In this document: positions 46,165-63,812 of the stretch, one piece after another
Position numbering within the stretch: position 1 is the stretch's first letter
Layout of the letters: every line of letters starts with the position of its first letter
Assembly (NCBI GenBank): GCA_963705355.1
Contig: OY970070.1
Span: forward strand, 287,741 to 351,740
Source: an uncultured Thermoplasmata archaeon
GTDB taxonomy: Archaea > Thermoplasmatota > Thermoplasmata > UBA10834
Length of the DNA: 64,000 nucleotides
Direction of reading: 5' to 3'
Notes under the pieces: generated by a model
Seen by the model: the letters and a program-made list of their open reading frames with translations, nothing else
Database searches by the model: none
Told to the model about the DNA's origin: nothing
Position numbers and translations under genes: made by a program

Positions 46165-47028
46165 TCAGGGTTCAAGATTCTTTGCATTCTGTGGCAAGGT
46201 GTTTCTAATCTTGCCCGCTTGGATAGCAAGTTCAAGCTCACCGATCTGACCATCCATGAACTGAGATACCAGGTCAATCATTGGCCTCGGCATCTCCTTG
46301 ACAAGCTCGATCTCCGGCTTTCTCAGCATCCCCAGGATGCCGTCTGGAATCTTCTGCTCCTGTTCGAGTATGGCATCGTCGACGGGAAGATTTGCATACC
46401 AGTTGCGGTAAGTCTCTCCCCTTGAGCTGTCGTGTCCAACATAGTACGCTGAGGCGGAATTGGTCAGTCTCGCATCCTCGCACTTCAAGCATACGAAATG
46501 CCTGAAGTCAGAAGGGCAGAGTTTGGGTAGCTTCCATCGCTGCTGGAATCGCGACCAGTATCTGCCCATGCAACCCTTGTCCAACGGCCTTGAGTTCTCG
46601 ATTCTTCCGTCCGAATGCCGCCAAGGAATGATAGGGTCTTCGGGTTTCATTCCAGTCCCTCTCTCATCGAGAGCTTCCTTCAGTATCTCTATGATGGCTG
46701 GCGGCAGATGCGCTCCTATCCAGGCATCCGTCTTGAAGTGCTCATCCCGTCCACTGGCCAGAATGGCGTGTGGCATTCCGGCTTCATCGTACTGGATGTT
46801 TCGCATCTTCAGGTTGTACAAGTGGCTCGGACGCCATCCGAACTCCATTGTCAGGAGCACAAGGAGCTTCGTGTAGGTGTCCGGCTCCTTCTCGACAGCT
46901 TCAATCCACTGCTGATTGAAATTAAAGGAAGAATGTCTGGCTCTTAGGAGGTGCACGGCTCGGCGCGCTCCCGAAGTGAGAAAAGCCCATAGGGGGGAAG
47001 AAAGGAAGGGGTTTGGCCGCCCCGTCAA
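46165..47028 (-). CDS. Tyrosine recombinase / phage-type integrase (catalytic-domain-like; possibly truncated)
   Basis: Candidate catalytic residues in order: R in MEFGWRPSHL, SDFRHF (HxxR box) and YYVGHDSSRGETYRNWY (Tyr nucleophile region). The first ~33 codons overlap R1 repeat copy 1. Confidence 0.55.
   Translation of the reverse strand: MTGRPNPFLSSPLWAFLTSGARRAVHLLRARHSSFNFNQQWIEAVEKEPDTYTKLLVLLTMEFGWRPSHLYNLKMRNIQYDEAGMPHAILASGRDEHFKTDAWIGAHLPPAIIEILKEALDERGTGMKPEDPIIPWRHSDGRIENSRPLDKGCMGRYWSRFQQRWKLPKLCPSDFRHFVCLKCEDARLTNSASAYYVGHDSSRGETYRNWYANLPVDDAILEQEQKIPDGILGMLRKPEIELVKEMPRPMIDLVSQFMDGQIGELELAIQAGKIRNTLPQNAKNLEP
46928..47022. repeat. Repeat R1 copy 1, long form (GAATGTCTGGCT...TGAGAAAAGCCCATAGGGGGGAAGAAAGGAAGGGGTTTGG)
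   Basis: ~75% identical over ~95 nt to 48633-48730, and core-identical to shorter copies at 59548, 59621, 61176, 61761 and 63060. Confidence 0.7.
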
Positions 47029-47167
47029 TCGCGTCTGATTGACAAAGAAGCCAGATGGGCCATCGCGATTTGAGCGCGAAGCCAGAACCTAGGACCCCCG
47101 GAGGAAATGCTCTCTCCTGCTCGATCTAGACGAAGGAGTCAAATCTGCGACTCTGCGATATCGTGCC

Positions 47168-48619
47168 TTGGATTTGGCGAGTGGGACAATGAGAAAAGAG
47201 CTAGTGCCCTATGCAAACCTGGTGACGGAATCTCGAAAGAGAGAGAAGAAAGCCCTCGATATGCTCGCGGAATTAGTGAAGTATCCCTCCGTCGCCATCA
47301 GGGACCACCCAACGATACTGGAGTGCGCCAGTTGTGTTGAGGATCAATTGAGGAAGTTCGGCTATTCCGTGAAACAGTATCCGACTGGGGGTTCGCCTGT
47401 TGTATTCGGCGAAAGGAACGTTGGGGCGGCAAAGACGCTTCTCATCTATGAACACTACGATGTCCAGCCCGAGGATCCTCTTGAGAGTTGGAGTGTCCCA
47501 CCTTGGCAGCTGACCATCAAGGGTGAGCGTTTCTATGGCAGGGGCACATGTGACACCAAGGGTCCCCACATCGCCAATCTGATTGGCATGAGCCTGATTG
47601 AGGACTTGCTTGGACAGCTTCCTGTTAACGTCAAGTTCGTCGTCGAGGGGGAAGAGGAGATTGGATCAGAGCATCTGCCTGTGTTCGCAATTCCAAACGG
47701 GGACCTACTGAAGGCCGATGGGGGAGTAATTGAAGCGCTAACAGTCAACCCTGGGAGTTCATCGGAGATGATAAGCGGGGCAAAAGGATGTGCCTATTTC
47801 GAACTGTCTGCAGAGGGTACGCCACCGTTCCCCAGGACCGACGCTCATTCAGGATTTGCAGGCGCCGTTCCGAATGCTGCCTGGAGACTGATTTGGGCAC
47901 TTGCCTCCCTCAAGGATGCGAACGAGAACATCCTGATTGAGGGCTTCAATGATTTGGTCAAGGAGCCGTCAGCGGAGGACCTGGCGGCTCTCAAGAACGC
48001 CCAACGGAGCTTGGAGAAGTTCTTGGCAGATGAGTATGGAGTGACGAGGACCATCCTCGATCGCAGAGGGCTCGACCTAAAGAGAGCGATCTATCTTGAA
48101 CCATGCATATCTGTGTGTGGAATCGAGAGTGGATACCGTGGCCCAGGATCAAAGTCGATTACGCCTGCGCGAGCCAAGACCAAACTTGACTTCAGGTTAG
48201 TCCCTGATCTCACTGAAGATAAAGTAGAAGCGTTGTTAAGAGCACATCTTGAGAGGAACGGCTTCTCCGACATCCGAGTGACAAGAGTTGACCGTGGCTA
48301 CGACCCGGCGAAGACTCCAATCAACGATCCGTTCATTCAACTCGTCCATCAAGCTGCAGCCGAAATCGCCTCCCCGGCTCCCGTTGACCTGATTCCTATG
48401 CATTGGGGGAGCGCCCCTCTTTATCTCTTCACCCCCCATGTTCCGTGCTGCATAATGGCCAGCGATGGAGATTTGCAGACGAACGCTCACGCCCCTGACG
48501 AGAACTGGATTAGGTCGAGTATGTGTAACAGTATGGCTTTCGTCGCGCTTGTGGCCGAACGAATGGCTGCAACATCAAAGGGTTTGTGGGACAACGAAGA
48601 AGAACTCAATTCCGGCTGA
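47168..48619 (+). CDS. M20-family dipeptidase / peptidase (ArgE/DapE/PepV-like)
   Basis: M20 metal-binding blocks (YEHYDVQP, GRGTCDTKG, VEGEEEIGS) and a dimerisation domain. The true start may be ATG 47189. Confidence 0.75.
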   Translation: MDLASGTMRKELVPYANLVTESRKREKKALDMLAELVKYPSVAIRDHPTILECASCVEDQLRKFGYSVKQYPTGGSPVVFGERNVGAAKTLLIYEHYDVQPEDPLESWSVPPWQLTIKGERFYGRGTCDTKGPHIANLIGMSLIEDLLGQLPVNVKFVVEGEEEIGSEHLPVFAIPNGDLLKADGGVIEALTVNPGSSSEMISGAKGCAYFELSAEGTPPFPRTDAHSGFAGAVPNAAWRLIWALASLKDANENILIEGFNDLVKEPSAEDLAALKNAQRSLEKFLADEYGVTRTILDRRGLDLKRAIYLEPCISVCGIESGYRGPGSKSITPARAKTKLDFRLVPDLTEDKVEALLRAHLERNGFSDIRVTRVDRGYDPAKTPINDPFIQLVHQAAAEIASPAPVDLIPMHWGSAPLYLFTPHVPCCIMASDGDLQTNAHAPDENWIRSSMCNSMAFVALVAERMAATSKGLWDNEEELNSG

Positions 48620-48632
48620 TTGAAATCAGAAA

Positions 48633-48730
48633 AAGAATGTCTGGCTTAGTGTGGGTGCGCGCCCCTGCGGCCGCACTCAGCTGTTTTGAGAAAAGCCAAT
48701 AGGGGAGGAAAGGCGACCGATGTTCAAACC
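48633..48730. repeat. Repeat R1 copy 2, long form with internal GC hairpin (GTGCGCGCC...GGCCGCAC) and core GAGAAAAGCCAATAGGGGAGGAAAGGCGACCGATGTTCAAACC
   Basis: Direct repeat of 46928-47022. Together the two copies flank the M20 peptidase gene. Confidence 0.7.
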
Positions 48731-48804
48731 GCAATTCACGCCACATCCGAAAAAAGGCTATAGAGAAGGACAAATCCGAAGGCCTAGGAATCGCATTCAC
48801 CCCT

Positions 48805-48957
48805 ATGGAGAGCGAAAGGTTGGTTAGTGTGTATGAGTGCAATGTGTGCCACTTTCTGTTCGGGAAACATGCCCCCCAGTGTCCAGTTTGCCACCATGGG
48901 GCGCTGTCTATGGTTGGCTCCTTTCTCCCTGAGAAAGGACATGAACAACCACCCTGA
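48805..48957 (+). CDS. Small zinc-ribbon (rubredoxin-like CxxC...CxxC) protein, 50 aa, not in the ORF track
   Basis: MESERLVSVYECNVCHFLFGKHAPQCPVCHHGALSMVGSFLPEKGHEQPP has two CxxC knuckles 10 residues apart. It lies in repeat-rich intergenic DNA, so could be fortuitous. Confidence 0.35.
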   Translation: MESERLVSVYECNVCHFLFGKHAPQCPVCHHGALSMVGSFLPEKGHEQPP

Positions 48958-48976
48958 GTGGCGCTTTCCGTCTGCT

Positions 48977-49017
48977 GGAAAAGGCAATAGACAAGGAAAT
49001 GAGAAGGGTTTGGTGCG
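48977..49017. repeat. Degenerate R1 copy (GGAAAAGGCAATAGACAAGGAAATGAGAAGGGTTTGGTGCG)
   Basis: Shares the head GGAAAAG-C-ATAG and the tail AAGGGTTTGG with copy 1. Confidence 0.45.
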
Positions 49018-49238
49018 TTCTCCGAAGACTCAATTAGCCAGATTAGCTTCCGAGCCAGTGTGTCTCGAAACGGGGTCGGTCTACCCTACTCTCGCCACTC
49101 CGGACCCGATTTTTTTGGAATGACTTTCTGGAAGGCGCAATGCAATGCTCACCTTCCACGGCCATCATTCTGTGAAGTGGTGGGTCAACCTCATGACATC
49201 TCGGTAAGGCACGACGCCGACGATCCTGCCCTCGGCGT

Positions 49239-50342
49239 CTACGACCGGCAGCGAGCGTTCATCAGCCTCCCCTGCAGGGGCTCGAGCTTCGGATGCGTGA
49301 AGGAGCCATTCTCTTCGATGACCTCGCCATCAAAGAACACAGAGGGCTTTATCGTCACGCCGTCGATGTGGCTCTTCGCGAGGGGGTAGCCGCCATGAAA
49401 GGAGGCCATCTGAGAGCCGAAGCCCGTGACAAATACACCGAAGGCCCGCTCGTCCTCGAGGATTTTTCCCGAGAGGCGAGCCCCGGGGTTGAAGCCGAAG
49501 CAAAAGTGTGCCACATTATACATCCTGCGGTCTCGGAAGTGCCGAATCCATTCACGCAGAATATCTGCAGCCTTCCCGTCACCGATGGAAACGATTCGCC
49601 CTTTCGAGAGCTCCAGGCGGATTGGCTCTTTCAATGGTGCGAGAGGATCGGGAGGCCACACCGTGCCGTCTAGGACTAGGCTCCCCTCAATCGTGCCCTC
49701 CATCGCAGCCCAAGAGAGCTGCCCGCCCAGGTAGCTATCACGACCAGAAACCACGCACTCCCCCGTGTCAAGGAATATGGGTCGCTTCCCGTTTTTGAAG
49801 CTGATGTCCGTGCCTGCGAGAGATGTCACACGAATCTCCTTCGCTCTAGCGGTCATCTCCTGTAGCGTCATCCCGAATTTCTTCAGATCAGGGAGAGACA
49901 CATTTCCTATGCACCGAGTCATCATATCCGCGTCCATCCCCGAGAGGCAGAGTGCCCTCGCGCCCGCAGCCATGGCGCGCTCGAAGGCTTTCGTGGTGAT
50001 GAGATACGTCCGCGCGAACTCCACAAGGACATCTGCGCTCTTCATCGCTTCCGCGAAGGAAGCTGGGGGTTCGGTGCCCAGCGGCCCTTTGATATGGTAC
50101 CAAACTTCCAGTGACTGGCCCCCACGAGTCTCCACCGCGTCAGCTGTCGCGCGCACGACACTCGGATCCGCGCCTTGGTCGCCATAGACGATGACCGTCT
50201 CGCCCTTCTTTAACCGTAGCAAGTCTCTAACAATAACCGTCGCCACGCCCTTTACGTTCTCCGTATAAATCCCCTCCAGTGACCAGATCTGCGGCTTAAG
50301 AAAGTTCGCATCAGCGCGCCTCCTTTCTATGCTTCTTCTCAA
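49239..50342 (-). CDS. Putative aminopeptidase (M29/AmpS-like); weak assignment
   Basis: Size and blocks (FLDTGECVV, HFCFGFNPG) are compatible with thermophilic-metalloprotease M29 proteins. Last gene of the opp cluster. Confidence 0.35.
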   Translation of the reverse strand: MRRSIERRRADANFLKPQIWSLEGIYTENVKGVATVIVRDLLRLKKGETVIVYGDQGADPSVVRATADAVETRGGQSLEVWYHIKGPLGTEPPASFAEAMKSADVLVEFARTYLITTKAFERAMAAGARALCLSGMDADMMTRCIGNVSLPDLKKFGMTLQEMTARAKEIRVTSLAGTDISFKNGKRPIFLDTGECVVSGRDSYLGGQLSWAAMEGTIEGSLVLDGTVWPPDPLAPLKEPIRLELSKGRIVSIGDGKAADILREWIRHFRDRRMYNVAHFCFGFNPGARLSGKILEDERAFGVFVTGFGSQMASFHGGYPLAKSHIDGVTIKPSVFFDGEVIEENGSFTHPKLEPLQGRLMNARCRS

Positions 50343-51420
50343 CGGGCACGAACTTTGATCTGAACCCGAAGTATCCAGGGCCGAAAACTTCGATACCCTT
50401 CGGCGTCCGCCATATGTTCGGGGCGGGAAGGCCGAAGACCGCGATCGACTGGCCCTTCGTCACCCAAGGATTCAGAACCGGCACGCGCTCTTCGATATCT
50501 AGGAGGCAGATAAGGTCTGGTACTGTGACGTCGACCTTATCATCGCGCCATGCGATGATGTTCTCGTTCTTGAACCATATCCTGTAACGCTTCCCGTAGT
50601 CCTTGTCCACGCTACGAAGGGAGATTTCACCGAAGGTGAACCCCTCCTTGTCCTGATACTTGCAGTTCGCCATCGCCACGCCTCGGAACAGGAGGTAACC
50701 GCCCGTGGCCTCGAGGATCGCTTCGATGACATTCGCCTTGCCGCGGATCGCTTGTCCGACTCTTTCACAAAAGGTGATAGACCGCAATACAAGACCCTTC
50801 CGCAGACTCCCGACACAGCCCGGATGATCTGCGACACCGACATGCCCCCCACTAATCACGGCCATGGAGCGGACAAAAGCCTCGGCGTGAAAATCGTCCA
50901 TCACGCGCTGTACGATCACCTCATCCCCGTATTTATTCGCAATGCCCATGGGCGCAATGGGGATTCCCGCGACGAAGTATGTCGAGTGCTGGAGGTCAGG
51001 TACGGAACGGCCTGCGCCATCCGCATCCAAAACAGGGAGCCCGAGCTGAGCAGCGACGGACAGGGCGGCAGCCGTGTTCCCTCCACCGAGTTCCGAAGCC
51101 ACGATGCTCCCGAAGGCAACGCCGAGATGGCGTTCGAGAGCCCTCGTTGCCAATAGGCATTCTTGTCCATCGTAGAGTATCTCTTCTTTCGCCTTGAAAA
51201 CGGTTTTCCCGGTTGGCGCGAGACTCCCGCAGTAATATGGCGTGCACATCCAGGTCTCCTGTGGTAATTCATCTGGATCTGCGAGGCGGATCGAGCGGCC
51301 CGCCTTCAAATCCGCCGCGACCGTTTCGAGCCCCTTATCCAACGACCCGCCACCACCGGTCCCCAGGAACGCTGCGCCTACCAAGATATCCTGCACATTC
51401 GCCAAGTTTAGTGTTCTCAT
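50311..51420 (-). CDS. DUF917-family protein
   Basis: N-terminus VGAAFLGTGGGGS and a size (~369 aa) typical of DUF917. This family is often encoded with hydantoinase or peptide-utilisation genes. Confidence 0.5.
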   Translation of the reverse strand: MRTLNLANVQDILVGAAFLGTGGGGSLDKGLETVAADLKAGRSIRLADPDELPQETWMCTPYYCGSLAPTGKTVFKAKEEILYDGQECLLATRALERHLGVAFGSIVASELGGGNTAAALSVAAQLGLPVLDADGAGRSVPDLQHSTYFVAGIPIAPMGIANKYGDEVIVQRVMDDFHAEAFVRSMAVISGGHVGVADHPGCVGSLRKGLVLRSITFCERVGQAIRGKANVIEAILEATGGYLLFRGVAMANCKYQDKEGFTFGEISLRSVDKDYGKRYRIWFKNENIIAWRDDKVDVTVPDLICLLDIEERVPVLNPWVTKGQSIAVFGLPAPNIWRTPKGIEVFGPGYFGFRSKFVPVEKKHRKEAR

Positions 51421-52391
51421 GTGACTTCCTCCGATATCATTTCAACGAAATGACAGGCAACCCAGGTCTTCCTCACTTGGCGGAGAGGAGGCTCCTCCTT
51501 GGTGCATCGCTCCTGGGCCCACGAACACCGAGTGCGGAAGCGGCAGCCCGACGGCGGCTCCAGCGCCGAAGGAATCTCCCCCTTCAGAGGGAGGCGGGCG
51601 CGCTCCCGTCCCGGCTCGGGTAATGGCACGGCGTTCCGCAACGCCATCGTATACGGGTGTTGGCCATCCCGGAGGACGTCCACGGCGCCGCCGACCTCCA
51701 TGAGTTTCCCTAGGTACATTACGCCCACGCGATCCGCGAGATAGCTCACGAGGGCTAAATCATGGCTGATGAAAAGGTATGTGAGGCCAAGGTCCGTCTG
51801 TAGCTCCTTCAAAAGGTTCACGATTTGGGCTTGGACGGAGACATCGAGGGATGATGTCGGTTCGTCCAAGACGATGAACTTCGGCTCGAGGGCGAGAGCC
51901 CGCGCGATGGCGATGCGTTGGCACTGCCCGCCGCTCAGCTCGTGGGGATAGCTCTCCGCGACCTCGGGATTGAGCCCCACACGTCGGAGCAACTCGCTCA
52001 CTGCGTTACGCGCATCCTGTGAGGTCAATCTCCGATGGACTCGCAACGGCTCGGCGATAGCCTGACCCACGCGCATTCGTGGGTCTAAAGAGGCAATAGG
52101 ATTTTGAAAGACAATCTGCATCCGTAACCGCGTCTGTCGGAGGACCTCCCCGCGAATTACGGTAAGCTCCCGGCCGTCAAACCAAATGTGGCCCGAGGTA
52201 GGCTCGACAAGGCGAAGGATGCAGCGGCCGAGAGTACTCTTCCCAGAGCCGCTCTCTCCCACGAGACCGAAGGTCTCCCCCTCCTCGATATCGAGGTTCA
52301 CGCCGTCGACCGCATGGACGTATGCGCGTCCAGCAAAGCCCTTGTGAACAGGGAAGAGCTTCGTGAAATTCTCTATGCGAACGATGCTCAT
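51417..52391 (-). CDS. oppF: Oligopeptide/dipeptide ABC transporter ATP-binding protein (OppF/DppF-type)
   Basis: Walker [10 protein letters not shown], signature LSGGQCQR, Walker [14 protein letters not shown]-terminal oligopeptide-transporter domain. Confidence 0.85.
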
Positions 52392-53362
52392 TCCTTCACC
52401 CCCTCATAAAGAAGGCACGCGGCGCTGTGCCCGGGCTGTGGCTCGAGAAGTTCGGGACGACGGACCGCGCAAGTCTTCATCGCGAATTCGCATCGTGGAT
52501 GGTAACGGCATCCGCCCGGTGGATTGATGAGGCTCGGGACGCTTCCGGGGATGGATGCAAGCGGTTTCTCTCGCACGTCCGCCCGTGGGATGGACTTCAG
52601 GAGGCGCTGGGTATAGGGATGTAAAGGGTTCTGGAAAAGATCGCACACCGGCGCCACCTCCGCGAGCGCACCAGCGTACATAACACCCACCTGCATGCAA
52701 GTCTCTGCAACAATGCCGAGGTTATGGGTGATGAGAAGAACCGAGAGGCGGAATTCCCGCTGGAGTTCTACGAGAAGGTCGAGGATCTGAGCCTGGATTG
52801 TGACGTCAACGGCAGTCGTGGGTTCGTCTGCGATGAGGAGTTGAGGTCGGCAGGCAAGAGCCATGGAAATCATCACGCGCTGCTGCATCCCGCCGCTGAG
52901 TTCGTGGGGGTAACTCCGCAGGACGTTTTCCGGGTCCGGCAGGCCCACGCGCCGGAAAAGATCGAGGCTCCGGCGTTTTGCTATATCCTTATCCACGCTT
53001 TCGTGGGTCATGATGATCCGGGTGATTTGCTTCCCCACGGAGAAGACGGGATTCAGGCTCGTTGCAGGATCCTGGAAGATCATGGAAATCGCCGTGCCGC
53101 GGAGGTGCTCCATCTCCGCCTCTGTCTTCGAGAGGAGTTCCTCTCCCATGAAATGAATGCTGCCCGTGCGAATGCGAGCGTTCGGAGGCAGGAGCCCCAG
53201 AATCGTGAGGGCTGTAACAGTTTTCCCGCACCCCGTCTCGCCCACCAATCCGAAGATTTCGCCCTCTCCAATCGAAAAGGTGACATGGTCCAACACCTTC
53301 GCAGTCCCGATTTCGGTTGTGAACTCAAGGCTCAGGTCCTTCACTTCGAGTAGGGATTTCAT
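52388..53362 (-). CDS. oppD: Oligopeptide/dipeptide ABC transporter ATP-binding protein (OppD/DppD-type)
   Basis: Walker A GETGCGKT, signature LSGGMQQR, Walker B LLIADEPTTAVD. Confidence 0.85.
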   Translation of the reverse strand: MKSLLEVKDLSLEFTTEIGTAKVLDHVTFSIGEGEIFGLVGETGCGKTVTALTILGLLPPNARIRTGSIHFMGEELLSKTEAEMEHLRGTAISMIFQDPATSLNPVFSVGKQITRIIMTHESVDKDIAKRRSLDLFRRVGLPDPENVLRSYPHELSGGMQQRVMISMALACRPQLLIADEPTTAVDVTIQAQILDLLVELQREFRLSVLLITHNLGIVAETCMQVGVMYAGALAEVAPVCDLFQNPLHPYTQRLLKSIPRADVREKPLASIPGSVPSLINPPGGCRYHPRCEFAMKTCAVRRPELLEPQPGHSAACLLYEGVKE

Positions 53363-54282
53363 ATCAACAACCGCCTCCGCCGTAGCTTAGGGTCGAGGGC
53401 ATCCCGGAAGCTATCTCCCAGGAGGTTGAATGAGAGGACCACGAGGAAAATAGCGAGTCCCGTGAATGTGGAATACCACCAGTAAGTGACGAAGCTTCCT
53501 GTCACATAAGCGGTGTTAAATATCACACCCCAATCGGGGATGGGAGGCTGCGCACCGAGACCGAGCCAACTCAAGGATGCGGCAATGAGAATCGCGGACC
53601 CGACATCCATAGATGCTTGGATTGTCGCTGGCGTGATGGAATTCGGCAGAATGTGCCGCAGGATGATCCGGGGGCGGGGCAACCCGAGCACGACCGCCGC
53701 CTCGACGAACGGCTGCGAGCGGATATGAATGACCTGGGAGTGCACAAGTCGTGTGTACCAAGGCCAAAAGCTCACCGCAATCGCGATGATTACGGCGTTT
53801 GTGCCACGACCCAATGTCGCCGCAATCACGAATGCGAGGATGATAGGTGGGAAGGCGAGGAACATGTCCGTGACCCGCATAATGACTTCTTCTACCAGGC
53901 CGCGCACGTACCCCGCGAGCACCCCAAGGAGGACGCCGACGGGGAAAGCTATGGCGATTGTCAGGACACCGACCTTGAGCGCTAGGCTCGCGCCGAACCA
54001 CAGACGTGCAAGGAGATCGCGCCCGAACTCGTCCGTGCCAAAGGGGTGTTCCCAGCTCGGTGATTGAAGCCTCTCCGCAACGTTTGTCTGCCCTTGCCCT
54101 TGAACGGAATACGGGACGAGGGAGGGCAGGAAGAGTGCAATGAGGGCCGCGCCCACAAAGAGCATGAGGATTACGAAACCCAGGAGGCCGAGAGGGTCTC
54201 GTCGGAGGATTCTCCAGAGCCCGCGAATGAACCCCATTGCTGCAGTTTGGACGCGGGCCAGAGCTGGAGATTCGGTCCCCAT
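53359..54282 (-). CDS. oppC: Oligopeptide ABC transporter permease (OppC/DppC-type)
   Basis: BPD-transporter permease with an EAA-like loop. Start reassigned to ATG 54282 (MGTESPALARV...) because the track ORF overlaps oppB by 170 nt. Confidence 0.75.
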   Translation of the reverse strand: MGTESPALARVQTAAMGFIRGLWRILRRDPLGLLGFVILMLFVGAALIALFLPSLVPYSVQGQGQTNVAERLQSPSWEHPFGTDEFGRDLLARLWFGASLALKVGVLTIAIAFPVGVLLGVLAGYVRGLVEEVIMRVTDMFLAFPPIILAFVIAATLGRGTNAVIIAIAVSFWPWYTRLVHSQVIHIRSQPFVEAAVVLGLPRPRIILRHILPNSITPATIQASMDVGSAILIAASLSWLGLGAQPPIPDWGVIFNTAYVTGSFVTYWWYSTFTGLAIFLVVLSFNLLGDSFRDALDPKLRRRRLLI

Positions 54283-54284
54283 TA

Positions 54285-54384
54285 CCCCTTTATCAGTACT
54301 ATCTGGGGATTCCAAAAGGATTGGCTTCATCATTATCAACCTCCCCCCTTTGCCAGTACTATCCGGGGATCCAAAAAGGATTGG
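54285..54384. repeat. Tandem ~40-nt direct duplication (CCCTTTRYCAGTACTATCYGGGGAT-CCAAAAGGATTGG) spanning the oppB 3' end and the oppB-oppC spacer
   Basis: Two copies 60 nt apart. One encodes the OppB C-terminus (FLDPRIVLAKGGG). The other lies in the spacer and supplies an AAAGGGG RBS-like sequence before the oppC start. Confidence 0.6.
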
Positions 54385-55433: not shown

Positions 55434-55444
55434 GTCTTCAGTCC

Positions 55445-57079: not shown

Positions 57080-57632
57080 TTATCTCCCTCTCCTTTCACT
57101 TGCCTTCTTCACTTCTTGACACTTTGGTAGCAGAATGATGAGAACATCTCTCCCCACAAATTCAGATAGGCCGCTGATTACTCCACGCTTATGTACCGAA
57201 AATGTTCCGAGAATCTTCGACCTGTCATCAATCTCTATTTTCAGACAGACACCTTCACTCACATCATGGTATCACTATAAGCACTCTGCTGTCTGATGGC
57301 ATCTGAAACTATCAGTTGTGAGGATATCTTTCCCAGGTGAACACACGCCGAAAAACGGTATCCTGGCTGGGCTTGAATGTCGCTTCGGCCATCATTCATC
57401 GCCTCATCCTGTATGGATCGCCCAAGACACTCTGGATGGGCCGCTTCATCATCGGGAAAATCAGCAATTGAAAAATACTTGCACTCAATGTTCAACGGAT
57501 GCCTAGAGTCCTTGACACTCGAGACTTCCGAGAGATCACGGTGCGAGCATCTGTGGAGAGACCTGTTCGAACGACACCGCTTCCCAGCGTTTGTTTCCTT
57601 CCCCTAGTTTGGAGATGTTTTCCAGGATTCCT

Positions 57633-58010
57633 TCATACCATCCATTTCTGCCAGACGACCTTCGGCGCTTTCGAGAGCAGGTGCTTGCATTCTTTGGGCC
57701 GTCCTCTCTTGTCGATGCGCAACAGCTCGCAATGGTCGAACCGCCAGTACTCACAGAGATCGCAAGCATAGGTCTCCCCGAGCGGGACCTGCTGATAGTC
57801 TCGGCATCTCTCACACTTGCCCTCTATCCAGTTCTTGAGCTCCCCCTTGCAATCTGGGCACGGGATAGGAGTATGGTACGGAACATGGCTATTGGAGACC
57901 ATCTGCGCCCCGGGGCAATGCTCGTATCCTGGGCAGCGGCACTCTGGCCATGCCATGATCGGGCAGAAGCCATAGTCCTCAAGCTCCACAGTGCATGGAA
58001 CCTTGTGCAT
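57633..58010 (-). CDS. Cysteine-rich hypothetical protein (125 aa, 16 Cys; multiple CxxC zinc-ribbon-like pairs)
   Basis: CPIMAWPECRCPGYEHCPG, CPDCKGE...CERC, CDLCEY...HCE patterns. Confidence 0.4.
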   Translation of the reverse strand: MHKVPCTVELEDYGFCPIMAWPECRCPGYEHCPGAQMVSNSHVPYHTPIPCPDCKGELKNWIEGKCERCRDYQQVPLGETYACDLCEYWRFDHCELLRIDKRGRPKECKHLLSKAPKVVWQKWMV

Positions 58011-58577
58011 ACTTGAATGTCTTGCTCTCTATCAATCAGAGAATTATTGCCCTGAACCAAACCTCACCAACGCTATCGAACTAGCAGGGCTCGTCCGTGG
58101 AAACTCCGGAATGCATTTTCTACCGGTAAGAAAATGGAGGATGAGATCCTCACATTCTGTACCAGTGAGTATAGCATCCAGCTTTAATCACTGGTAGATT
58201 CCGGGCCATAATCCCGACAAGAGCACGTTAATGAGAAAAAAGGAAAGGGTTTGAGGGAACGGACGGGGACAACGGGTTCTGACGCTTCCAAAGCCAGCGC
58301 ATTTTGAAGGCCAGATTTTGGGCTTTCGCTATCCGTTGAAGGCCGACGTTGACCTGCTCATGATTGATGCCAAATCACAACATACTAGCTTGTGAAGGGG
58401 ACGATCTCCTCTCCCAACGAGATTGTTCTACCAGCCTCCTTGGAGCATGCAATGGAGACGCCTCTCACTCATTGGAAATCAGTGAGACCGTACGGTAATC
58501 GTGAAGACCTGCGTCCCTCCATCCTTCGCCAACGGACGATGTCAGGAACATTCTCATGGAGGAATGGGCATCGGGGT

Positions 58578-59321
58578 ATGATGGCAATGACAAGCAAGTT
58601 CAGGAGCGAGGTGAAGCAACTCGCAACGCAACTAGGAGCGGATCTCGTTGGAATAGCTCCAGAGAAGGCGTTTGCCAATGCGCCTGGAGGACATCGCCCG
58701 CAGGACATCCTGACGGGGGCGAGAAGCGTCATAGTAATCGCTGTCGCACTCCCACATGCGGCTCTCGAATCCGCTCCTAGCCGCGAGTATTCGGCAACTT
58801 ACACGTCGGCCAACAATGAGCTCAACAGAATCGCGTTCAGGCTCGCGAAGTTTCTCCAGGAGAATGGGCATCGCGCGGTCCAGGTCCCCGCATCTTCGCC
58901 CTACGATCTCAAGCGCATGAGAGGCGATATTTCGCACAGGCATGCTGGCGAGCTGGCAGGGCTCGGGGTGTTCGGCAAGAACAGCCTCCTCCTCTCGCCG
59001 AAATATGGCGCTAGAATGCGCTTGGTCTCTGTCATCACAGACGCAAACCTCACACCTGACAAGAGGTTGGAGACTGATTTCTGCATGGATTGTGACAAAT
59101 GCATCCGAGCATGTCCGGCGAAAGCCCTCAAAGGCGGTCGAACAGTTGACAAAGAAACTTGTGACAATCAGCACCCCAGAATAGGAAAGAAGCTCGATCT
59201 GTCGGGCGGGGAACAGGTCTGCGGTGTCTGCATACGCGTCTGCCCTGTTGGGATTGATGCCAAGAAGAGAGGGCCTCACAAGGCCAGTCGCTCGAGATCA
59301 AGGGACCAATGCGAATACTGA
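58578..59321 (+). CDS. QueG-like (epoxyqueuosine-reductase-related) 4Fe-4S protein, truncated relative to bacterial QueG
   Basis: QueG-like N-terminus (LGADLVGIAPEKAF...ARSVIVIAVAL), ISHRHAGELAGLGVFGKNSLLLSPKYG, and two Cys clusters (CMDCDKCIRACP, CGVCIRVCP). Start placed at ATG 58578. Confidence 0.55.
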   Translation: MMAMTSKFRSEVKQLATQLGADLVGIAPEKAFANAPGGHRPQDILTGARSVIVIAVALPHAALESAPSREYSATYTSANNELNRIAFRLAKFLQENGHRAVQVPASSPYDLKRMRGDISHRHAGELAGLGVFGKNSLLLSPKYGARMRLVSVITDANLTPDKRLETDFCMDCDKCIRACPAKALKGGRTVDKETCDNQHPRIGKKLDLSGGEQVCGVCIRVCPVGIDAKKRGPHKASRSRSRDQCEY

Positions 59322-59422
59322 AAGACCTTGTTTGCGTCAGCTCCTTACTGGGACAAAGACAACGGCCGGCTCGTGCTAGGTCCGAGGCAGATTGAGGAAG
59401 CGGTTCGTCCTGGAAAGGAGTC

Positions 59423-59513
59423 TAGGTCCGGCTTCAATCCCTGCTGATTGAATTCGAGTTGCGATGTACTGGCTCCTGAGGGGTTCGAATCCTCCCGAGG
59501 TTGGATTCCCAGA
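59423..59513 (+). repeat. R2 module A: tRNA-3'-half-like element (TAGGTCCGGCTTCAATCCCTGCTGATTGA...TTGCGATGTACTGGCT...GGGGTTCGAATCCTCC CGAGGTTGGATTCCCAG)
   Basis: Contains a canonical T-arm-like GGGGTTCGAATCC. ~80% identical in blocks to 63729-63812. No complementary 5' acceptor strand found nearby. Confidence 0.5.
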
Positions 59514-59547
59514 AGAAAAAGCCTCGGATGGGGTTTGAGCCTCGCCT

Positions 59548-59590
59548 CGGAAAAGCCCATAGGTGAGGAAAGGCGACCGATGTTCAAACT
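59548..59590. repeat. R1 copy 3 (CGGAAAAGCCCATAGGTGAGGAAAGGCGACCGATGTTCAAAC); a second partial copy lies at 59621-59655
   Basis: Near-identical to the core of copy 2. Confidence 0.7.
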
Positions 59591-59826
59591 ACAAGGTCTT
59601 CACACGTCTCCAAGGAAAGTCCTTAGGGGAGGAAGGGCGGGCGATGTTCAAATCTCGAATGGTGAGAGGGATGTTGCTTGCAGAGCCCGAAATGCCTGTC
59701 TGGACATTTTAGCGGGACGCGCGATCGGAACGCAGTTGGATGTGCGTTGATGAAGGCGATTGAACCTTAAGTCTGCCGCAACGAGTTAATATACCGGTTC
59801 CTTCAAATATCCATTGGGCGACTCTT

Positions 59827-61164
59827 GTGAAAGCGATCGACGCCAGTGTGCTCAAGAAGTTCGAAATGTCTTTCGACGAGGACCCTAAGAACCGCCTCGC
59901 CATGAATGCGGTGACAGAGAACGGAATCTCATCTGTCGCTCTCAATCGAAAGGATGTCGACAGGATCAACTTCACGTTCAGCCACCAGATCGAGTCACCG
60001 GAAGCGACAAATCAGGAGAGATCAGGAAGATGCTGGCTTTTCTCTGGGCTCAGCTTTCTGGCTTTTGAAGCCATGAAGAAGTTGAATGTCGACACCTTCG
60101 AGCTTTCCGAGATCTATCAGATGTTCTGGGATAAGCTCGAGAAGGCGAACTTCTTCCTTGAGAACATAATCGAGACAAGGGCGGAACCCCTGGACAGTCG
60201 GAGGCTGATGTGGCTGCTTTCGGACCCACTGTCCGATGGCGGACAGTGGGACATGTTCGTGAACCTTGTCAAGAAATACGGCGTGGTTCCGAAGTCCTTC
60301 ATGCCAGAGACCGAGAGCAGCAACAACTCGGAACCGATGAACGCCCTCTTGGAAACAAAGCTGAGGGAATATGCGAAGCTGATAAGGGACAAGCACGCCG
60401 ATGATAACGACCTGGAGGAGCTGCGCTCGATCAAAGAGAAGTGTCTTGAAGAGTTCTACAGGATGCTTGCGGTGAGCCTCGGAAAGCCGCCGACCGAATT
60501 ATACTGGGAATGGCGCGACAAGCACGAGGAATTCCATCGGCACGGCAGGATAACTCCGAAGGAGTTCTACAGCGAATACATCGGCGTTGATCTGGACGAC
60601 TTCGTGTGCATCATCAACGCCCCTACTCCGGACAAGCCGTTCAACAGGACGTACACGGTGAGGAATCTCGGCAACGTCGTCGAGTGTAGGCCGATTCGAT
60701 ACCTGAACGTGGACATGAAGAGTCTCAAGAGAGTCACGATAGAGATGATCAAGGACAATCATGCGGTCTGGTTCGGCTGCGATGTCGGCCAGATGCTTGC
60801 CACCGAACTGGGCGCTATGGACCTCAGCGTCTATGACTACGAGCTAGTCTTCGGAACGAAGTTCAATCTTGACAAGGCGTCGAGGCTTGAGTACGGCTGC
60901 AGCGAAATGACGCACGCGATGCTTCTCACCGGCGTGGATCTTGACGAAGGCGGTCGACCCAGAAAATGGCGGGTGGAGAATAGCTGGGGTGCCAAGATCG
61001 GAGATAAGGGATTCATGTACATGATGGATGAATGGTTCGAGGAGTATCTGTACGAGGTCATCGTGAACAAGAAGTATCTCGGGCCGGAATTGTTGACGGC
61101 GCTCGAAACAGAGCCGGTCCCCCTCGAACCTTGGGATCCGATGGGAAGTCTCGCAAGGTCGTAG
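59827..61164 (+). CDS. pepC: C1B-family cysteine peptidase (aminopeptidase C / bleomycin-hydrolase type)
   Basis: Catalytic Cys in QERSGRCWLFS, and a C-terminal His/Asn region (...VENSWG). GTG start. Confidence 0.8.
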   Translation: MKAIDASVLKKFEMSFDEDPKNRLAMNAVTENGISSVALNRKDVDRINFTFSHQIESPEATNQERSGRCWLFSGLSFLAFEAMKKLNVDTFELSEIYQMFWDKLEKANFFLENIIETRAEPLDSRRLMWLLSDPLSDGGQWDMFVNLVKKYGVVPKSFMPETESSNNSEPMNALLETKLREYAKLIRDKHADDNDLEELRSIKEKCLEEFYRMLAVSLGKPPTELYWEWRDKHEEFHRHGRITPKEFYSEYIGVDLDDFVCIINAPTPDKPFNRTYTVRNLGNVVECRPIRYLNVDMKSLKRVTIEMIKDNHAVWFGCDVGQMLATELGAMDLSVYDYELVFGTKFNLDKASRLEYGCSEMTHAMLLTGVDLDEGGRPRKWRVENSWGAKIGDKGFMYMMDEWFEEYLYEVIVNKKYLGPELLTALETEPVPLEPWDPMGSLARS

Positions 61165-61175
61165 GAAGCTCATTC

Positions 61176-61200
61176 GCATAGGGGAGGAAAGGCGATTCGG
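61176..61200. repeat. R1 copy 4 (GCATAGGGGAGGAAAGGCGATTCGG)
   Basis: Core motif ATAGGGGAGGAAAGGCGA ~50 nt upstream of the next gene. Confidence 0.6.
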
Positions 61201-61251
61201 GCACGAAAAAGGGTGGTCGGGTTGAGAGTGCCAAAAAGAACCGCATATGCA

Positions 61252-61695
61252 ATGGCTATCGCCATCTCAATTGTGATTCTGCTTGTGCTGATGGTCTATC
61301 TCCTCGCTTTCTCCATGGTGAAGGTTTCTGGAGTTGTCGACCATAAGACCATAACAGGCATCAGGGACCAGACTCTCTACTCTCTGGTTGTGATGTATCC
61401 CTGGGGTATCCAGATCGATGACCATGCTCTCGATTACCTATTCCAAGGTAAGGACCAGAATGTGACAATCAATGCGACATTTGAGCAGGCGATACTCAGC
61501 CATGGATATTCCAAGATCAACTATCTTGCCAGCATCCAGGTCAGCTCGAAAGACTCGGTGAATCACCTCAATCCAGGAGATGCTCTCGCTTACTTCGTGA
61601 AGAGAAGTGATTTCAACGCTCTGAGGATTGGGAACACCGTAACATACGAGGTTGAGAAGGGAAAGACCCTCACCATTGCACGGGTCAATGATTGA
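61252..61695 (+). CDS. Hypothetical membrane-anchored protein
   Basis: N-terminal TM helix AIAISIVILLVLMVYLLAF followed by a soluble domain. Start taken at ATG rather than the track's GTG 61213. Confidence 0.4.
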   Translation: MAIAISIVILLVLMVYLLAFSMVKVSGVVDHKTITGIRDQTLYSLVVMYPWGIQIDDHALDYLFQGKDQNVTINATFEQAILSHGYSKINYLASIQVSSKDSVNHLNPGDALAYFVKRSDFNALRIGNTVTYEVEKGKTLTIARVND

Positions 61696-61760: not shown

Positions 61761-61778
61761 CGGAAAAGCCCATAGGGA
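61761..61778. repeat. R1 copy 5, left half only (CGGAAAAGCCCATAGGGA), interrupted by the IS110 element
   Basis: Matches the R1 head. The R1 tail resumes at 63060 immediately after the IS. Confidence 0.6.
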
Positions 61779-63058
61779 TGGTATGTAGAAGAGGCCACTC
61801 GCCATTTCGTAGCAACGAGGTTGGATTCCCAGTGCCTCAATACGAATCGGAGGCGAGTAGGCCATGTTGTACATAGGACTGGACGTGCATAAAGAATTCT
61901 GTCAAGCGTGCGTGGTGAACGAACTCGGACGAGCTCTCTCAAATGAGAGATTCTTGTCCACCCGGGAGGAACTCGACAGGTTCCTGGCTCGATTCAAGGA
62001 CGCCAAGTTCGTCCTCGAATCCACAGGCATGTGGGAGTTCATCTACGAGGGAATCGAGAAGAGAGGGTTCGAGGTAGTGCTGGCTCATCCGCTCAAAGTG
62101 AGAGCCATTGCAGAAGCCAAGGTCAAGACCGACAAGGTCGACGCTGAAACCCTGGCTCAGCTACTTCGAGCGAACCTCATCCCTCGCTCGTGGGTCCCCA
62201 GTAAGGACGTGAGGGATCTCAGACAACTCGTGAGACAGCGCGCATATCTCGTCCAGCAGTCCACGAGTCTCAAGAATCGAATCCATGCCGAACTCCTCAG
62301 ACGAGGAGTACGGCGTCCACTGAACTTCGTGAGGCCGTTCTCGAAGAAGAGCATCGACTGGATGCGGTCTCTCGAGATCCCGACTGTCATCTCGTGCCTG
62401 AACTGCCTAGAGAGCGTCCAGGCACAGATCGAGAAGATGAACGCCCAGCTGCTGGATGAGTTCAACCGAAGACCCGATGCCCAGCTCATTGCGACGGTCC
62501 CGGGCATCGGATTCTACGGCGCCCTTCTGATCCACGCGGAGATCGACGACATCAAGAGGTTCTCTCATCCCGAGAAGCTGTGCGCTTATGCGGGGTTGGT
62601 GCCAACTGTGAGCCAGTCGGCATCCTCCGTCCACTACGGTGCCATCAGCAAGGACGGGTCCAGTTATCTCCGCTGGATGCTCACGGAGGCGGTCCACACT
62701 CACACTCATTGCGAGCCAGGCTCGCGACTCTCGAGATTCCACGCGAAGGTCGCGAGACGAAGGGGCAAGCAGAAGGCGACCATCGCGACCGCGAGGAAAC
62801 TCCTCCTCATCATCTACTGGATGCTCGTGAGACACGAGCCATATCACAGTCAAGGATTGGACCCCGGCTTTCCTCCTGCACGTAATGAGTGCGACATAGG
62901 GATTGGGGCAGGTCCCTGACAAATGGACGAAGATGCCATAGTGCGGCGTGGACCGCGAATAGAGGCTTGTCCGACAAACCCCTTGATCAAATCCACGACG
63001 GGAGGCAAAAACAAAGAGGATGAAACGCAATCAGACGAAATGTGAGTGGCCTTCTTCA
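61779..63058 (+). mobile_element. IS110-family insertion sequence (~1.28 kb) with imperfect 13-14-bp terminal inverted repeats (GAAGAGGCCACTC / GAGTGGCCTTCTTC), inserted into an R1 repeat
   Basis: Transposase ORF at 61864-62919. IRs at 61788-61800 and 63044-63057. Flanked by the two halves of an R1 motif. The non-coding ends (~80 nt left, ~140 nt right) could encode an IS110-type bridge RNA. Confidence 0.55.
61864..62919 (+). CDS. IS110-family transposase (DEDD-type recombinase)
   Basis: N-terminus MLYIGLDVHKEFCQACVV, the hallmark of IS110/IS1111 transposases. C-terminal domain contains VPGIGFYGALLI. Confidence 0.85.
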   Translation: MLYIGLDVHKEFCQACVVNELGRALSNERFLSTREELDRFLARFKDAKFVLESTGMWEFIYEGIEKRGFEVVLAHPLKVRAIAEAKVKTDKVDAETLAQLLRANLIPRSWVPSKDVRDLRQLVRQRAYLVQQSTSLKNRIHAELLRRGVRRPLNFVRPFSKKSIDWMRSLEIPTVISCLNCLESVQAQIEKMNAQLLDEFNRRPDAQLIATVPGIGFYGALLIHAEIDDIKRFSHPEKLCAYAGLVPTVSQSASSVHYGAISKDGSSYLRWMLTEAVHTHTHCEPGSRLSRFHAKVARRRGKQKATIATARKLLLIIYWMLVRHEPYHSQGLDPGFPPARNECDIGIGAGP

Positions 63059-63059
63059 A

Positions 63060-63082
63060 CATAGAGGGAGGAAAGGCGATTC
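63060..63082. repeat. R1 copy 6, right half (CATAGAGGGAGGAAAGGCGATTCC)
   Basis: Completes the R1 motif split by the IS110 element. Lies ~30 nt upstream of the isf-like gene. Confidence 0.6.
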
Positions 63083-63108
63083 CTGGGTGAGGAGAGTGGG
63101 GGAAACTG

Positions 63109-63687
63109 ATGAAAGTTCTTGCGATAAACGGTAGCGTAAGGAAAGGCGGGAACACGCAGCTCATGATCGAAGTGGCGGCGAAGCCGTTAAAGAGCGCTCG
63201 CGTACGAGTGGAGTCCGTGTACATCACGGATTATGACATCAAGCCCTGCAACGCGTGCGAGGTGTGCTACACGAAGCCTTGGCATTGCCCGATCAAGGAC
63301 GACGCCGTGAAGCTGCTCAAGAAGATGACCGACGCTGACGGTCTCATCATCGCATCCCCCGTGTACTGCACAGACGTGACGGCGCAGCTCAGGGCGCTTA
63401 TAGACCGGAGCGTCATACCGTACATTGAGCAGGACTTCAAGGACAAAGTGGGCGGGGCCATCATTGTGGGGGCGGGCGCTCATGGAGGCCAGGAGCTCGC
63501 CCTAATCCAAGTCATGGAATTCTTCCACTACCAGGGAATGATTATCGCCAGCCCTAGATTCGGGTTGGGCGGTGCTATGGGCACTGCAGACAAGAAGGGC
63601 GACATCAAGAAGGACAAGGAAGGGCTCAAGAGCGCCAGGGAACTGGGCATTCGAATGGCCGAACTCCTCAAGAGGTTCGACAAATGA
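63109..63687 (+). CDS. NADPH-dependent FMN reductase / iron-sulfur flavoprotein (Isf-like) family
   Basis: N-terminus MKVLAINGSVRKGGNT and flavodoxin-like fold motifs. A CxxC pair (CNACEVC) as in Isf proteins. Confidence 0.7.
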   Translation: MKVLAINGSVRKGGNTQLMIEVAAKPLKSARVRVESVYITDYDIKPCNACEVCYTKPWHCPIKDDAVKLLKKMTDADGLIIASPVYCTDVTAQLRALIDRSVIPYIEQDFKDKVGGAIIVGAGAHGGQELALIQVMEFFHYQGMIIASPRFGLGGAMGTADKKGDIKKDKEGLKSARELGIRMAELLKRFDK

Positions 63688-63728
63688 CCTGCTTGTCGTG
63701 GTACATGAAGTGGACTCCGAAATGGGAT

Positions 63729-63812
63729 TAGGTCCGAGCTCAATCCCTGCTGATTGATGGTTTCTTGCGACATACTGGCTGGTCAAGGGTTCGAATCCCT
63801 GCGGCCCTACCA
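63729..63812 (+). repeat. R2 module B: tRNA-3'-end-like element ending ...AAGGGTTCGAATCCCTGCGGCCCTACCA
   Basis: Paralogous to module A. T-arm-like GGGTTCGAATCCC followed by an acceptor-like GCGGCCCT and ACCA. Confidence 0.5.

Follow-up and report, generated by a model that had tools for sequence, protein, structure and literature searches.

What kind of structure fills the right end of this stretch of archaeal DNA, and how was it put together? The stretch examined here (the window) comprises 64,000 nucleotides (nt) of contig OY970070.1 from an uncultured Thermoplasmata archaeon. An earlier, sequence-only reading had described positions 46165 to 63812 as an accessory island, bounded by an integrase gene and a sequence resembling a tRNA 3' end and loaded with genes for peptide catabolism. 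We favour another picture, in which the DNA from 46.2 kilobases (kb) to at least 64 kb is probably a plasticity hotspot whose modules are exchanged by recombination within a 33-nt repeat, R1, most likely through the machinery of the host itself. Coordinates of the features are collected in Table 1.

The M42 junction

The window carries a number of archaeal markers (a ThiD-ThiN fusion, Rad50-Mre11, Trm5/Taw2 and a class II GlyRS). Its Trm5 protein (42866-43870), used as query against species-representative genomes, gave 56 loci, the best of which were Thermoplasmata metagenome-assembled genomes (MAGs): L003 at 96% identity, followed by further Thermoplasmata MAGs at 86-67%. Comparison by tblastn with the window proteins revealed that the block bounded by Rad50 and the M42 peptidase (34.1-46.1 kb) is syntenic in at least 10 related Thermoplasmata (L003-L026), with the order Rad50, Mre11, Na/H exchanger, FtsZ-like protein, (saccharopine dehydrogenase), orf41989, Trm5, dCTP deaminase-like protein, orf44361 and M42. 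This order was maintained down to 67% Trm5 identity, and the position of the M42 gene was constant throughout L003-L026, at 71-99% identity.

Immediately to the right of M42 the synteny breaks. In a blastn comparison with L003, window positions 44001-46163 showed 94.8% identity, ending at 46163; L003 continues beyond the breakpoint with 10 nt and then an R1 copy, without an integrase, before its contig ends. Most relatives with enough sequence carry another conserved block to the right of M42, with open reading frames (ORFs) of about 127, 170, 168, 647, 465, 310 and 133 amino acids (aa), which in L018 read as GcvH-like, flavin reductase-like and nitroreductase-like proteins and a molybdopterin enzyme (647 aa). 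None of the relatives' right-hand ORFs matched the window, and none of the proteins encoded in the window's region matched the relatives' loci at the M42 site; at least 10 relatives that retain Rad50...M42 lack the genes of the region at this site. The variable region with its left edge at 46164 is thus real. In this respect the description as an accessory island stood, as did the expectation that the gene order of the region as a whole would not be shared by relatives; the bounding by an integrase and a tRNA into one element did not.

Other haplotypes differ at the same place. In L060/L082 a shorter integrase stump (168 aa, 89% identical) lies beside M42, with a GNAT gene, a T-arm-like piece and R1 coming after it, and in L018 (68% Trm5 identity) a different insert of about 4 kb with three R1-like copies (12638-13175) occupies the M42 junction before the relatives' block begins. 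Because L003, L060/L082 and L018 differ there, the M42 junction is a recurrent hotspot, and the presence of an R1-like insert in a relative as distant as L018 makes this hotspot an old one.

Towards the right, Logan contigs of the same strain (L001, L002) extend only 420 nt past the window end, and in L001 these 420 nt hold a nitroreductase-like gene on the plus strand. Its identity to the positional counterpart in relatives is 20-24%, and it was ruled out as their right flank. Since the gene after the tRNA-like piece is not the relatives' orthologue, the right end lies outside the window; the region reaches at least 64 kb, and position 63812 is not established as its right border. The intact tRNA that had been proposed as something to look for just beyond the window end is not present within the 420 nt, where the nitroreductase-like gene is found instead.

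Modules and the R1 repeat

R1 is the exact 33-nt sequence CTCGGAAAAGCCCATAGGGGAGGAAAGGCGAT, a consensus over 126 distinct copies. Within the window its copies lie at about 46980, 48690, 48977 (degenerate), 59550, 59614 and 61176, with split halves at 61762/63060 and a further degenerate copy at 63931, so that the R1 copies described by the sequence-only reading were recovered, the degenerate ones and the one split by an insertion sequence (IS) included. R1 does not occur in window positions 1-46 kb nor, outside the M42 hotspot, in about 0.8 Mb of relatives' core regions, and two contigs of about 200 kb each had one R1-bearing stretch apiece. Being absent from core DNA, R1 does not serve the lineage as a general promoter. 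A pattern scan located it in at least 120 metagenome stretches (loci L063-L182), mostly from freshwater-sediment and wetland samples. The conserved block spans -5 to +28, with variable sequence on either side, and directly upstream of about a third of the copies lies a second motif, X (...AAAGGGGTTTGAGCCTCGCC). Start codons of ORFs of at least 50 aa peak 40-49 nt past the R1 start, typically 16-25 nt downstream of R1, with a Shine-Dalgarno-like GGAGG between R1 and start codon in about a third of copies. Several contigs show arrays of co-oriented genes with R1 ahead of each.

The comparison of R1 flanks between genomes gave the central result. Among 112 R1 copies with 150-nt flanks, 29 pairs shared flanking sequence, and all except three shared it on one side only (8 upstream, 18 downstream), the homology extending up to the R1 edge. 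With 26 of 29 pairs one-sided, R1 is the point at which homology between genomes stops. The same behaviour is seen for individual modules. The PepC module corresponds to positions 751-2330 of L183 at 97.7% DNA identity, from R1 to R1 exactly, with a PepC protein 99% identical, and in L183 it is embedded in unrelated sequence, with an aminotransferase on the upstream side and another membrane protein on the downstream side. In L087 the cassette found after R1 in L003 appears again, preceded by other sequence, and the 149 nt on the 3' side of R1 copy 2 are 95% identical to L075, with unrelated sequence upstream. Homologues of the Isf-like protein in L103 and L134 have R1 upstream too.

Two further modules recur with other limits. 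DNA 95.5% identical to the Opp-DUF917-NicX block is present in L188, L189 and L190, with unrelated flanks; the homology stops precisely at the NicX stop codon (49239) and, on the other side, at 57300, some 220 nt ahead of oppA, and in L189 it is followed by an X+R1 unit. The M20 gene has a copy in L071 (77% protein identity), again between unrelated flanks, with DNA homology over 47175-48552 that stops about 65 nt short of the window's stop codon, at the start of the repeat unit designated B below. Further PepC copies, 86% and 82% identical, occupy two other unrelated settings that lack R1. A TATA-like box about 35 nt ahead of the PepC start codon in the window (59780-59800), L184 and L187 (TTAATATACC / ATTATATACC / AATATATACC) is retained in these R1-less copies, and PepC therefore has its own promoter.

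No recombinase family travels with the repeat, none recurring in the 140 proteins whose genes lie within 4 kb of R1. The neighbouring proteins are diverse (Zn-ribbons, PKD, NosD, MarR, peptidases S15, C11 and M48, solute-binding proteins), and the genes led by R1 are enriched in small Zn-ribbon and membrane proteins. Folding of X+R1 did not reveal an attC-like hairpin, being no better than that of shuffled sequence on either strand (z 0.24-0.59).

The cargo itself was largely identified as before, with domain matches for the M20, DUF917, OppABCDF, C1B peptidase and Isf-like FMN reductase genes, and with the further peptidases M42, M28 and DUF885 present outside the region. The C1B peptidase is a full-length Peptidase_C1_2 match (583.8 bits, residues 4-440 of 445). 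One operon encodes a complete Opp/Dpp-type importer, with an SBP_bac_5 binding protein, two permeases and two ATPases with oligo_HPY; the best NCBIfam matches (GsiB, DppA, NikA) are all far under the cut-offs. Two assignments changed. The protein formerly read as an M29-like aminopeptidase has no Pfam or NCBIfam match, and its best match is the 2,5-dihydroxypyridine dioxygenase NicX (PDB 7cn3, E 3e-13), its orthologues carrying PF26233 NicX. The supposed QueG-like Fe-S protein is a 4Fe-4S protein; its scores of 65 bits for TIGR00276 (cut-off 200) and 70.8 bits for RDH (cut-off 160) are far under the family cut-offs, and it is therefore not a true QueG. The small Zn-ribbon ORF lies between R1 copies 2 and 3, in a frame that differs from that of the listed 98-aa ORF 48827-49123.

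The cargo had also been regarded as a single horizontally assembled peptide-use unit, with a PepC that is rare in archaea and probably of bacterial origin. Neither view holds, the modules recurring separately and the Opp operon being conserved in the lineage. Homologues of the DUF917 protein fall into about 38 clusters whose identity declines gradually from 96% to 65% and then drops to about 50%; some of these clusters carry the label Thermoplasmata. The seven-gene Opp-DUF917-NicX order is conserved in many Thermoplasmata at 65-77% identity (seen in L191-L194), and in two relatives at 74% identity the operon is followed by a shared FtsX-type ABC transporter, OCD, a MoCo enzyme and a BAT-HTH regulator. 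No integrase gene was called within 10 kb on either side of those operons. This distribution identifies Opp-DUF917-NicX as a conserved operon of the lineage that has been relocated in the close relatives of the window, not as a bacterial import. The DUF917 (S-methyl-thiohydantoin-desulfurase-like) and NicX-like genes always stand at the 3' end of an Opp-type operon (window 49239-51420, L189, L191-L194), and this constant attachment suggests a substrate other than plain oligopeptides.

PepC has at least hundreds of homologues, at 70-99% identity, of which the 120 listed are 67-99% identical; an exact-protein look-up gave no match to PepC. The named relatives among the matches listed are Nitrososphaerales and Bathyarchaeia MAGs, at 70-73% identity. 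Given these numerous archaeal homologues, C1B peptidases are not rare in sediment archaea, and the unusually high identity of 70-73% across archaeal phyla suggests transfer among archaea, between phyla and of recent date. Composition was compared as well. The GC content in the region is 52-60%, the window as a whole averaging about 55%. Tetranucleotide frequencies correlate with those of the core at 0.70-0.79 for 48-58 kb, below the 0.89 +/- 0.04 of the core itself, and at a normal level for 58-64 kb; the composition is only mildly atypical in the first of these segments and not at all in the second. The permease genes may explain the dip at 48-58 kb.

Table 1. Positions of genes, modules and repeats at the M42 junction and in the variable region
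Feature	Position	Strand	Remarks
M42 peptidase	44963-46090	-	Pfam Peptidase_M42, 283 bits; terminal gene of the syntenic block, outside the variable region
Left breakpoint	46164-46165		Stop codon of integrase ORF; homology to L003 ends
5'-truncated tyrosine-recombinase gene, catalytic domain only	46165-47028	-	True homology 46165-46914
Repeat unit A	46899-47042	+	Core TCAATCCACTGCTGATTGA 46899-46917; decayed tRNA-like stretch; R1 copy 1 46980-47005; second core 47025-47042
M20 dipeptidase-like gene	47168-48619	+	Pfam M20, M20_dimer
Repeat unit B	48606-48735	+	Core 48606-48623; acceptor-like CCCTGCGGCCGCACTCAG 48663-48680; R1 copy 2 48690-48713
Zn-ribbon ORF, ~45 aa	~48817-48957	+	Two CxxC pairs, ...YECNVCHFLFGKHAPQCPVCHH...; conserved in L075
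R1 copy 3, degenerate, with following X-like and core-like sequence	48974-49042	+	nhmmer E 1.8e-9
Opp-DUF917-NicX module	49239-57300	-	Seven genes + ~220 nt upstream
NicX-like	49239-50342	-	PDB 7cn3 match
DUF917 (S-Me-THD)	50311-51420	-	Pfam
OppF	51417-52391	-	Pfam
OppD	52388-53362	-	Pfam
OppC	53359-54333	-	Pfam
OppB	54336-55433	-	Pfam
OppA	55445-57079	-	Pfam
Cys-rich ORF	57633-58010	-	No family match
QueG/RdhA-like 4Fe-4S protein	58392-59321	+	Fer4_16
Repeat unit C	59413-59660	+	X-like left part; core 59434-59451; T-arm-like GGGGTTCGAATCCTCC 59479-59495; X motif; R1 copies 4 and 5
R1 copy 4	59550-59573	+	Unit C
R1 copy 5	59614-59637	+	Unit C / PepC module start
PepC module	59616-61195	+	R1 copy 5, C1B peptidase gene 59827-61164, R1 copy 6
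R1 copy 6	61176-61198	+	PepC module end
Membrane-anchored 160-aa ORF, single-gene module	61213-61695	+	Between R1 copy 6 and the IS-split R1
IS110-family element	61779-63060	+	Transposase 61864-62919; inserted in R1 copy at CATAG centre
Isf-like FMN reductase	63109-63687	+	FMN_red
Repeat unit D	63719-63812	+	X-like left part; core 63740-63757; T-arm + acceptor + CCA 63785-63812

Integrase stump, repeat units and the IS110 element

The gene at the left edge is a homologue of tyrosine recombinases, and to that extent its first description holds, yet it is not intact. The ORF scores 23.5 bits against Pfam Phage_integrase (cut-off 27.1), has no NCBIfam match at E <= 0.01 and is not IntI-like. Its motifs RPSH, FKT, FRH, GHD and TYRNWY align with those of homologues, of which there are just 6 among 5.8 billion proteins, the complete ones being 410-416 aa long. 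A profile built from full-length integrases matches the window ORF from profile position 155, at nucleotide ~46914, and the N-terminal ~170 residues are therefore absent; the profile has no second match elsewhere in the window, an int(N) fragment included. The first ~38 codons of the listed ORF are read-through of repeat unit A. An integrase origin of the N-terminal part that overlaps R1 was considered and dropped, the family profile giving it no support. The integrase gene is a dead stump. Its homology stops inside the hairpin core of unit A, the left arm of which encodes a conserved W-I-E, and the M42 gene starts 75 nt past its stop codon.

Self-comparison and alignment revealed four copies of a composite unit, A (46899-47005), B (48606-48713), C (59413-59573) and D (63719-63812), built from an 18-nt hairpin core, TCAATCC(N)CTGCTGATTGA (in shorthand TCAATCC..CTGATTGA), followed by ...CTGGCT..., a T-arm/acceptor-like stretch and R1. 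The two R2 modules of the sequence-only reading were recovered within it, at 59413-59492 and 63719-63798, together with two further, decayed copies at 46899-47005 and 48606-48713. The core recurs 4 more times in 17 kb (at most 3 mismatches), where 0.12 occurrences are expected by chance, and each core copy is followed by a stretch resembling tRNA positions 39-76. The tRNA resemblance of the units is limited to positions ~39-76, with no 5' half, acceptor partner or anticodon stem. Of the five core copies and the four tRNA-like fragments, which are dispersed through the interior of the region, none brackets it and none lies at the left border, 46164.

The supposed tRNA end at the right is part of this family. 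The sequence GGGTTCGAATCCCTGCGGCCCTACCA at 63787-63812 does consist of T-arm, acceptor and CCA, as had been recognised, and matches the tmRNA 3' end with 17.2 bits (E 0.002 in 18 kb), but no tRNA gene adjoins it. ARAGORN, a relaxed Rfam search and manual pairing of acceptor and anticodon stems gave no tRNA around units C and D, whether intact, split or interrupted by an intron, and the relaxed Rfam scan of 46-64 kb found just one tRNA 3' fragment and no tRNA gene. The tRNA end is one of the four decayed repeat-unit copies, a 3' fragment and not a gene. The sole tRNA gene of the window is a tRNA-Gly at 17874-17948 (ARAGORN, Rfam), with a TATA-like box, GGTATAAATC, about 30 nt upstream. Positions 48663-48680 of unit B match the last 13 nt of this tRNA-Gly(GCC) plus 5 nt of trailer (17870-17887, minus strand) at 17 of 18 positions; a derivation of unit B from the tRNA-Gly(GCC) end was not retained, since the match alone is not significant (E 0.29). 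Nor was the left part of unit B kept as an integrase remnant, its identity to the counterpart in unit A being ~35% and near random.

Elsewhere, tRNA genes or 3' fragments (T-arm + acceptor + CCA) often lie 10-50 nt, and as far as 130 nt, upstream of R1, as intact tRNAs in L172, L165 and L081 and as fragments in L095, L102, L113, L166 and L179; one tRNA-like fragment, followed by R1, precedes differing genes in differing contigs. A viral collection contained neither an integrase homologue nor R1. Two matches there to the T-arm/acceptor string were set aside as unrelated tRNA-like sequences in phage contigs.

The IS110 element was correctly named. Its transposase has DEDD_Tnp_IS110 (PF01548, 94.9 bits) and Transposase_20 (PF02371, 75.9 bits) domains and scores 255.6 bits for NF033542 against a cut-off of 140. 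The left flank ends in ...GGAAAAGCCCATAGG (R1 half 61762-61778) and the right flank resumes with CATAGAGGGAGGAAAGGCGATTCC (63060-63086), so that the element interrupts an R1 copy. It has no terminal inverted repeats at its tips, and its non-coding ends measure 85 nt (left) and 143 nt (right). In L085 (6738-6937) a related IS, with 87% identity over the first 38 residues, occupies the identical position in R1 in the opposite orientation. Elements of the IS110 family that target one conserved intergenic repeat are known (PMC11208160; bioRxiv 10.64898/2026.03.19.712850). A search for a bridge RNA in the element gave no Rfam match, and the 143-nt right end shares just 6-mers with R1.

Competing explanations and known systems

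The reading that we favour places a hotspot at a fixed chromosomal site, after the M42 gene, in a lineage of freshwater-sediment Thermoplasmata. Modules would be gained, lost and swapped singly, without any single integrated element; they would comprise M20, the Zn-ribbon ORF, the 8-kb Opp-DUF917-NicX operon, the Cys-rich ORF with the QueG-like gene, PepC, the 160-aa ORF, Isf and more beyond the window. Exchange would proceed through recombination inside the R1 copies at the joints, and since no recombinase co-occurs with R1, host recombination acting on these short identical repeats would be the likeliest agent. The larger, decayed units and the truncated integrase are most readily understood as remnants of insertions made long ago by an integrase at a tRNA-derived site, the hairpin units being putative former att sites, and one IS110-family element would later have inserted site-specifically into an R1 copy. 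Several points weigh against this account. Exchange at R1 is read from breakpoints, neither an enzyme nor an intermediate having been seen, and the breakpoint loci were chosen for exact R1 copies and come from short-read metagenome contigs, in which chimeric joins, though possible, are unlikely because a read is longer than the 33-nt repeat. The variable region has its right end beyond the window, and its compositional deviation is weak. Finally, perfect conservation over 28-33 nt would not normally be expected of a passive promoter and may hint at a dedicated recombinase, and R1 is not AT-rich, unlike the TATA boxes upstream of tRNA-Gly and PepC, from which it follows that the lineage uses a canonical AT-rich TATA that R1 does not resemble. 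A promoter or regulatory role of R1 may nevertheless exist.

The island of the sequence-only reading would be one element that targeted a tRNA, with an integrase at the left, a duplicated tRNA 3' end at 63812 and horizontally acquired genes for peptide use. A tyrosine-recombinase homologue does stand at the left edge, the tRNA 3'-like fragments share a common orientation and the region is missing at the M42 site in relatives. We nonetheless consider this explanation very improbable: neither end has an intact tRNA, the integrase lacks its N-terminal ~170 aa, the tRNA-like piece is present four times within the region as part of a repeat, the gene past 63812 is not the relatives' flank, single modules recur independently elsewhere, and the cargo is lineage-native or archaeal. 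Integrase-mediated insertion of another type is doubtful as well, though less improbable. Here the stump would be the relic of an SSV-type (type I, "suicidal") integrase with attP inside the int ORF, an int(C) fragment joined at the 18-nt core to a tRNA-derived 3' part, and the cores in A2, B, C and D would be att scars of repeated insertions. The end of integrase homology within the core hairpin that encodes W-I-E, the recurrence of the core far above chance and the tRNA-like stretch after every core all agree with it, type I integrases being defined by an attP-in-ORF architecture with tRNA genes as target (PMC7253208). On this model, however, the body of the element is expected 3' of int(C), where the M42 core gene is found instead, 75 nt past the stop; moreover, the window has no int(N), the intact tRNA is missing, the gene of a full-length homologue (L059) has no tRNA-like segment at the matching place, and the type I integrases of that account are so far known from hyperthermophiles (PMC7253208). 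Such relics may form a component of the hotspot that we favour.

Two opposite views of R1 itself are both unlikely in our judgement. In one, the region would be an integron-like platform, in which R1 with X serves as the site of recombination between cassettes for a dedicated site-specific recombinase and a divergent tyrosine recombinase stands at one end, ahead of an array of cassettes that mostly hold a single gene and mostly point the same way. The layout invites this comparison, with int on the minus strand followed by M20, the Zn-ribbon ORF, the QueG-like gene, PepC, orf61213, Isf and the nitroreductase-like gene, all on the plus strand with R1 between them; the breakpoints fall exactly at R1, and R1 copies cluster as arrays. 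IS1111-attC elements target attC sites in integrons, and here an IS110-family element targets R1. Integrons have also been reported in Archaea (PMC9668308). Against this, the integrase is truncated, is not IntI-like and has 6 homologues, whereas R1 is common; no recombinase is recurrent near R1, X+R1 has no attC-like hairpin, R1 is spaced from start codons as a promoter would be, and the 8-kb Opp operon is not cassette-like. In the other view, R1 would be a regulatory motif only, the promoter or operator of a secreted or accessory regulon in an otherwise normal chromosomal region shuffled by unrelated rearrangements. The spacing to the start codon with its Shine-Dalgarno-like sequence, and the enrichment of small Zn-ribbon and membrane proteins among R1-led genes, are what such a motif would give. 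The loss of homology exactly at R1 in 26 of 29 flank-sharing pairs speaks against it, as do the presence of R1 at both ends of the PepC module, although the TATA-like box of PepC sits 180 nt further on, and the absence of R1 from the 46 kb of adjacent core and from the relatives' core outside the hotspot.

A further and rather speculative possibility, to which we give some weight though not much, is that R1, often with X, is the site of an undescribed cassette exchange system of sediment Thermoplasmata, by analogy with attC/attI of integrons. Such a site would be linear, without hairpin and 33 nt long, and would in addition provide the following gene with its promoter or 5' end; the recombinase would be encoded elsewhere, possibly an IS110-type RNA-guided enzyme or the rare tyrosine-recombinase family represented in the window, and the window would show one such array, fixed next to M42 and headed by a dead recombinase gene. 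As an island, the region is ordinary, since such variable stretches, with their IS elements and dead integrases, are frequent and its peptide-uptake genes are native to the lineage. Less ordinary are its mosaic joints, which consist of one exact 33-nt sequence that occurs at least 120 times among related uncultured archaea and is the specific target of an IS110-family element. If R1 is an exchange site, it would offer a handle on the shuffling of peptidases, transporters and small secreted proteins in abundant sediment archaea, and would be an archaeal, non-hairpin counterpart to integron-type cassette systems.

Returning to the hotspot that we favour, it shares with genomic islands and plasticity hotspots a fixed site by a core gene, a content that varies per strain or species with most relatives empty, integrase and IS remnants and an accessory metabolic cargo. 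It differs from them in that its border has neither an intact tRNA nor a working integrase, its inner joints are marked by a lineage-wide 33-nt repeat, and its Opp-DUF917-NicX operon is lineage-typical and relocated rather than foreign. Integron arrays, archaeal ones included (PMC9668308), resemble it in the divergent tyrosine-recombinase gene at one end, the short, mostly co-oriented units split by a repeated site, the occurrence of one unit in different arrays and the IS110-family element within the repeated site; the recombinase here is truncated and not IntI-like, other R1 arrays have no integrase, and the repeat is without an attC-type hairpin and is placed relative to the next start codon as a promoter would be. 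The SSV-type int(N)/int(C) pseudogene relics of archaeal integrases, as outlined in PMC7253208 (and in She et al. 2001, cited therein), likewise have an int fragment reduced to the catalytic domain, whose homology stops at a direct repeat adjoining a tRNA 3'-like sequence. In the window, by contrast, the body of the element and int(N) are missing, a core gene lies on the 3' side of int, and the family is a rare one of mesophilic sediment (6 homologues). Finally, the targets of IS621 and ISPpu10, IS110 elements of repeats of the repetitive extragenic palindromic (REP) type (PMC11208160; bioRxiv 10.64898/2026.03.19.712850), are short, conserved, multi-copy intergenic repeats like R1, with an IS110 element at one defined position, no terminal inverted repeats and either orientation across genomes. 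Here the host is an archaeon, and R1 is not a palindromic hairpin and stands at gene starts and recombination joints.

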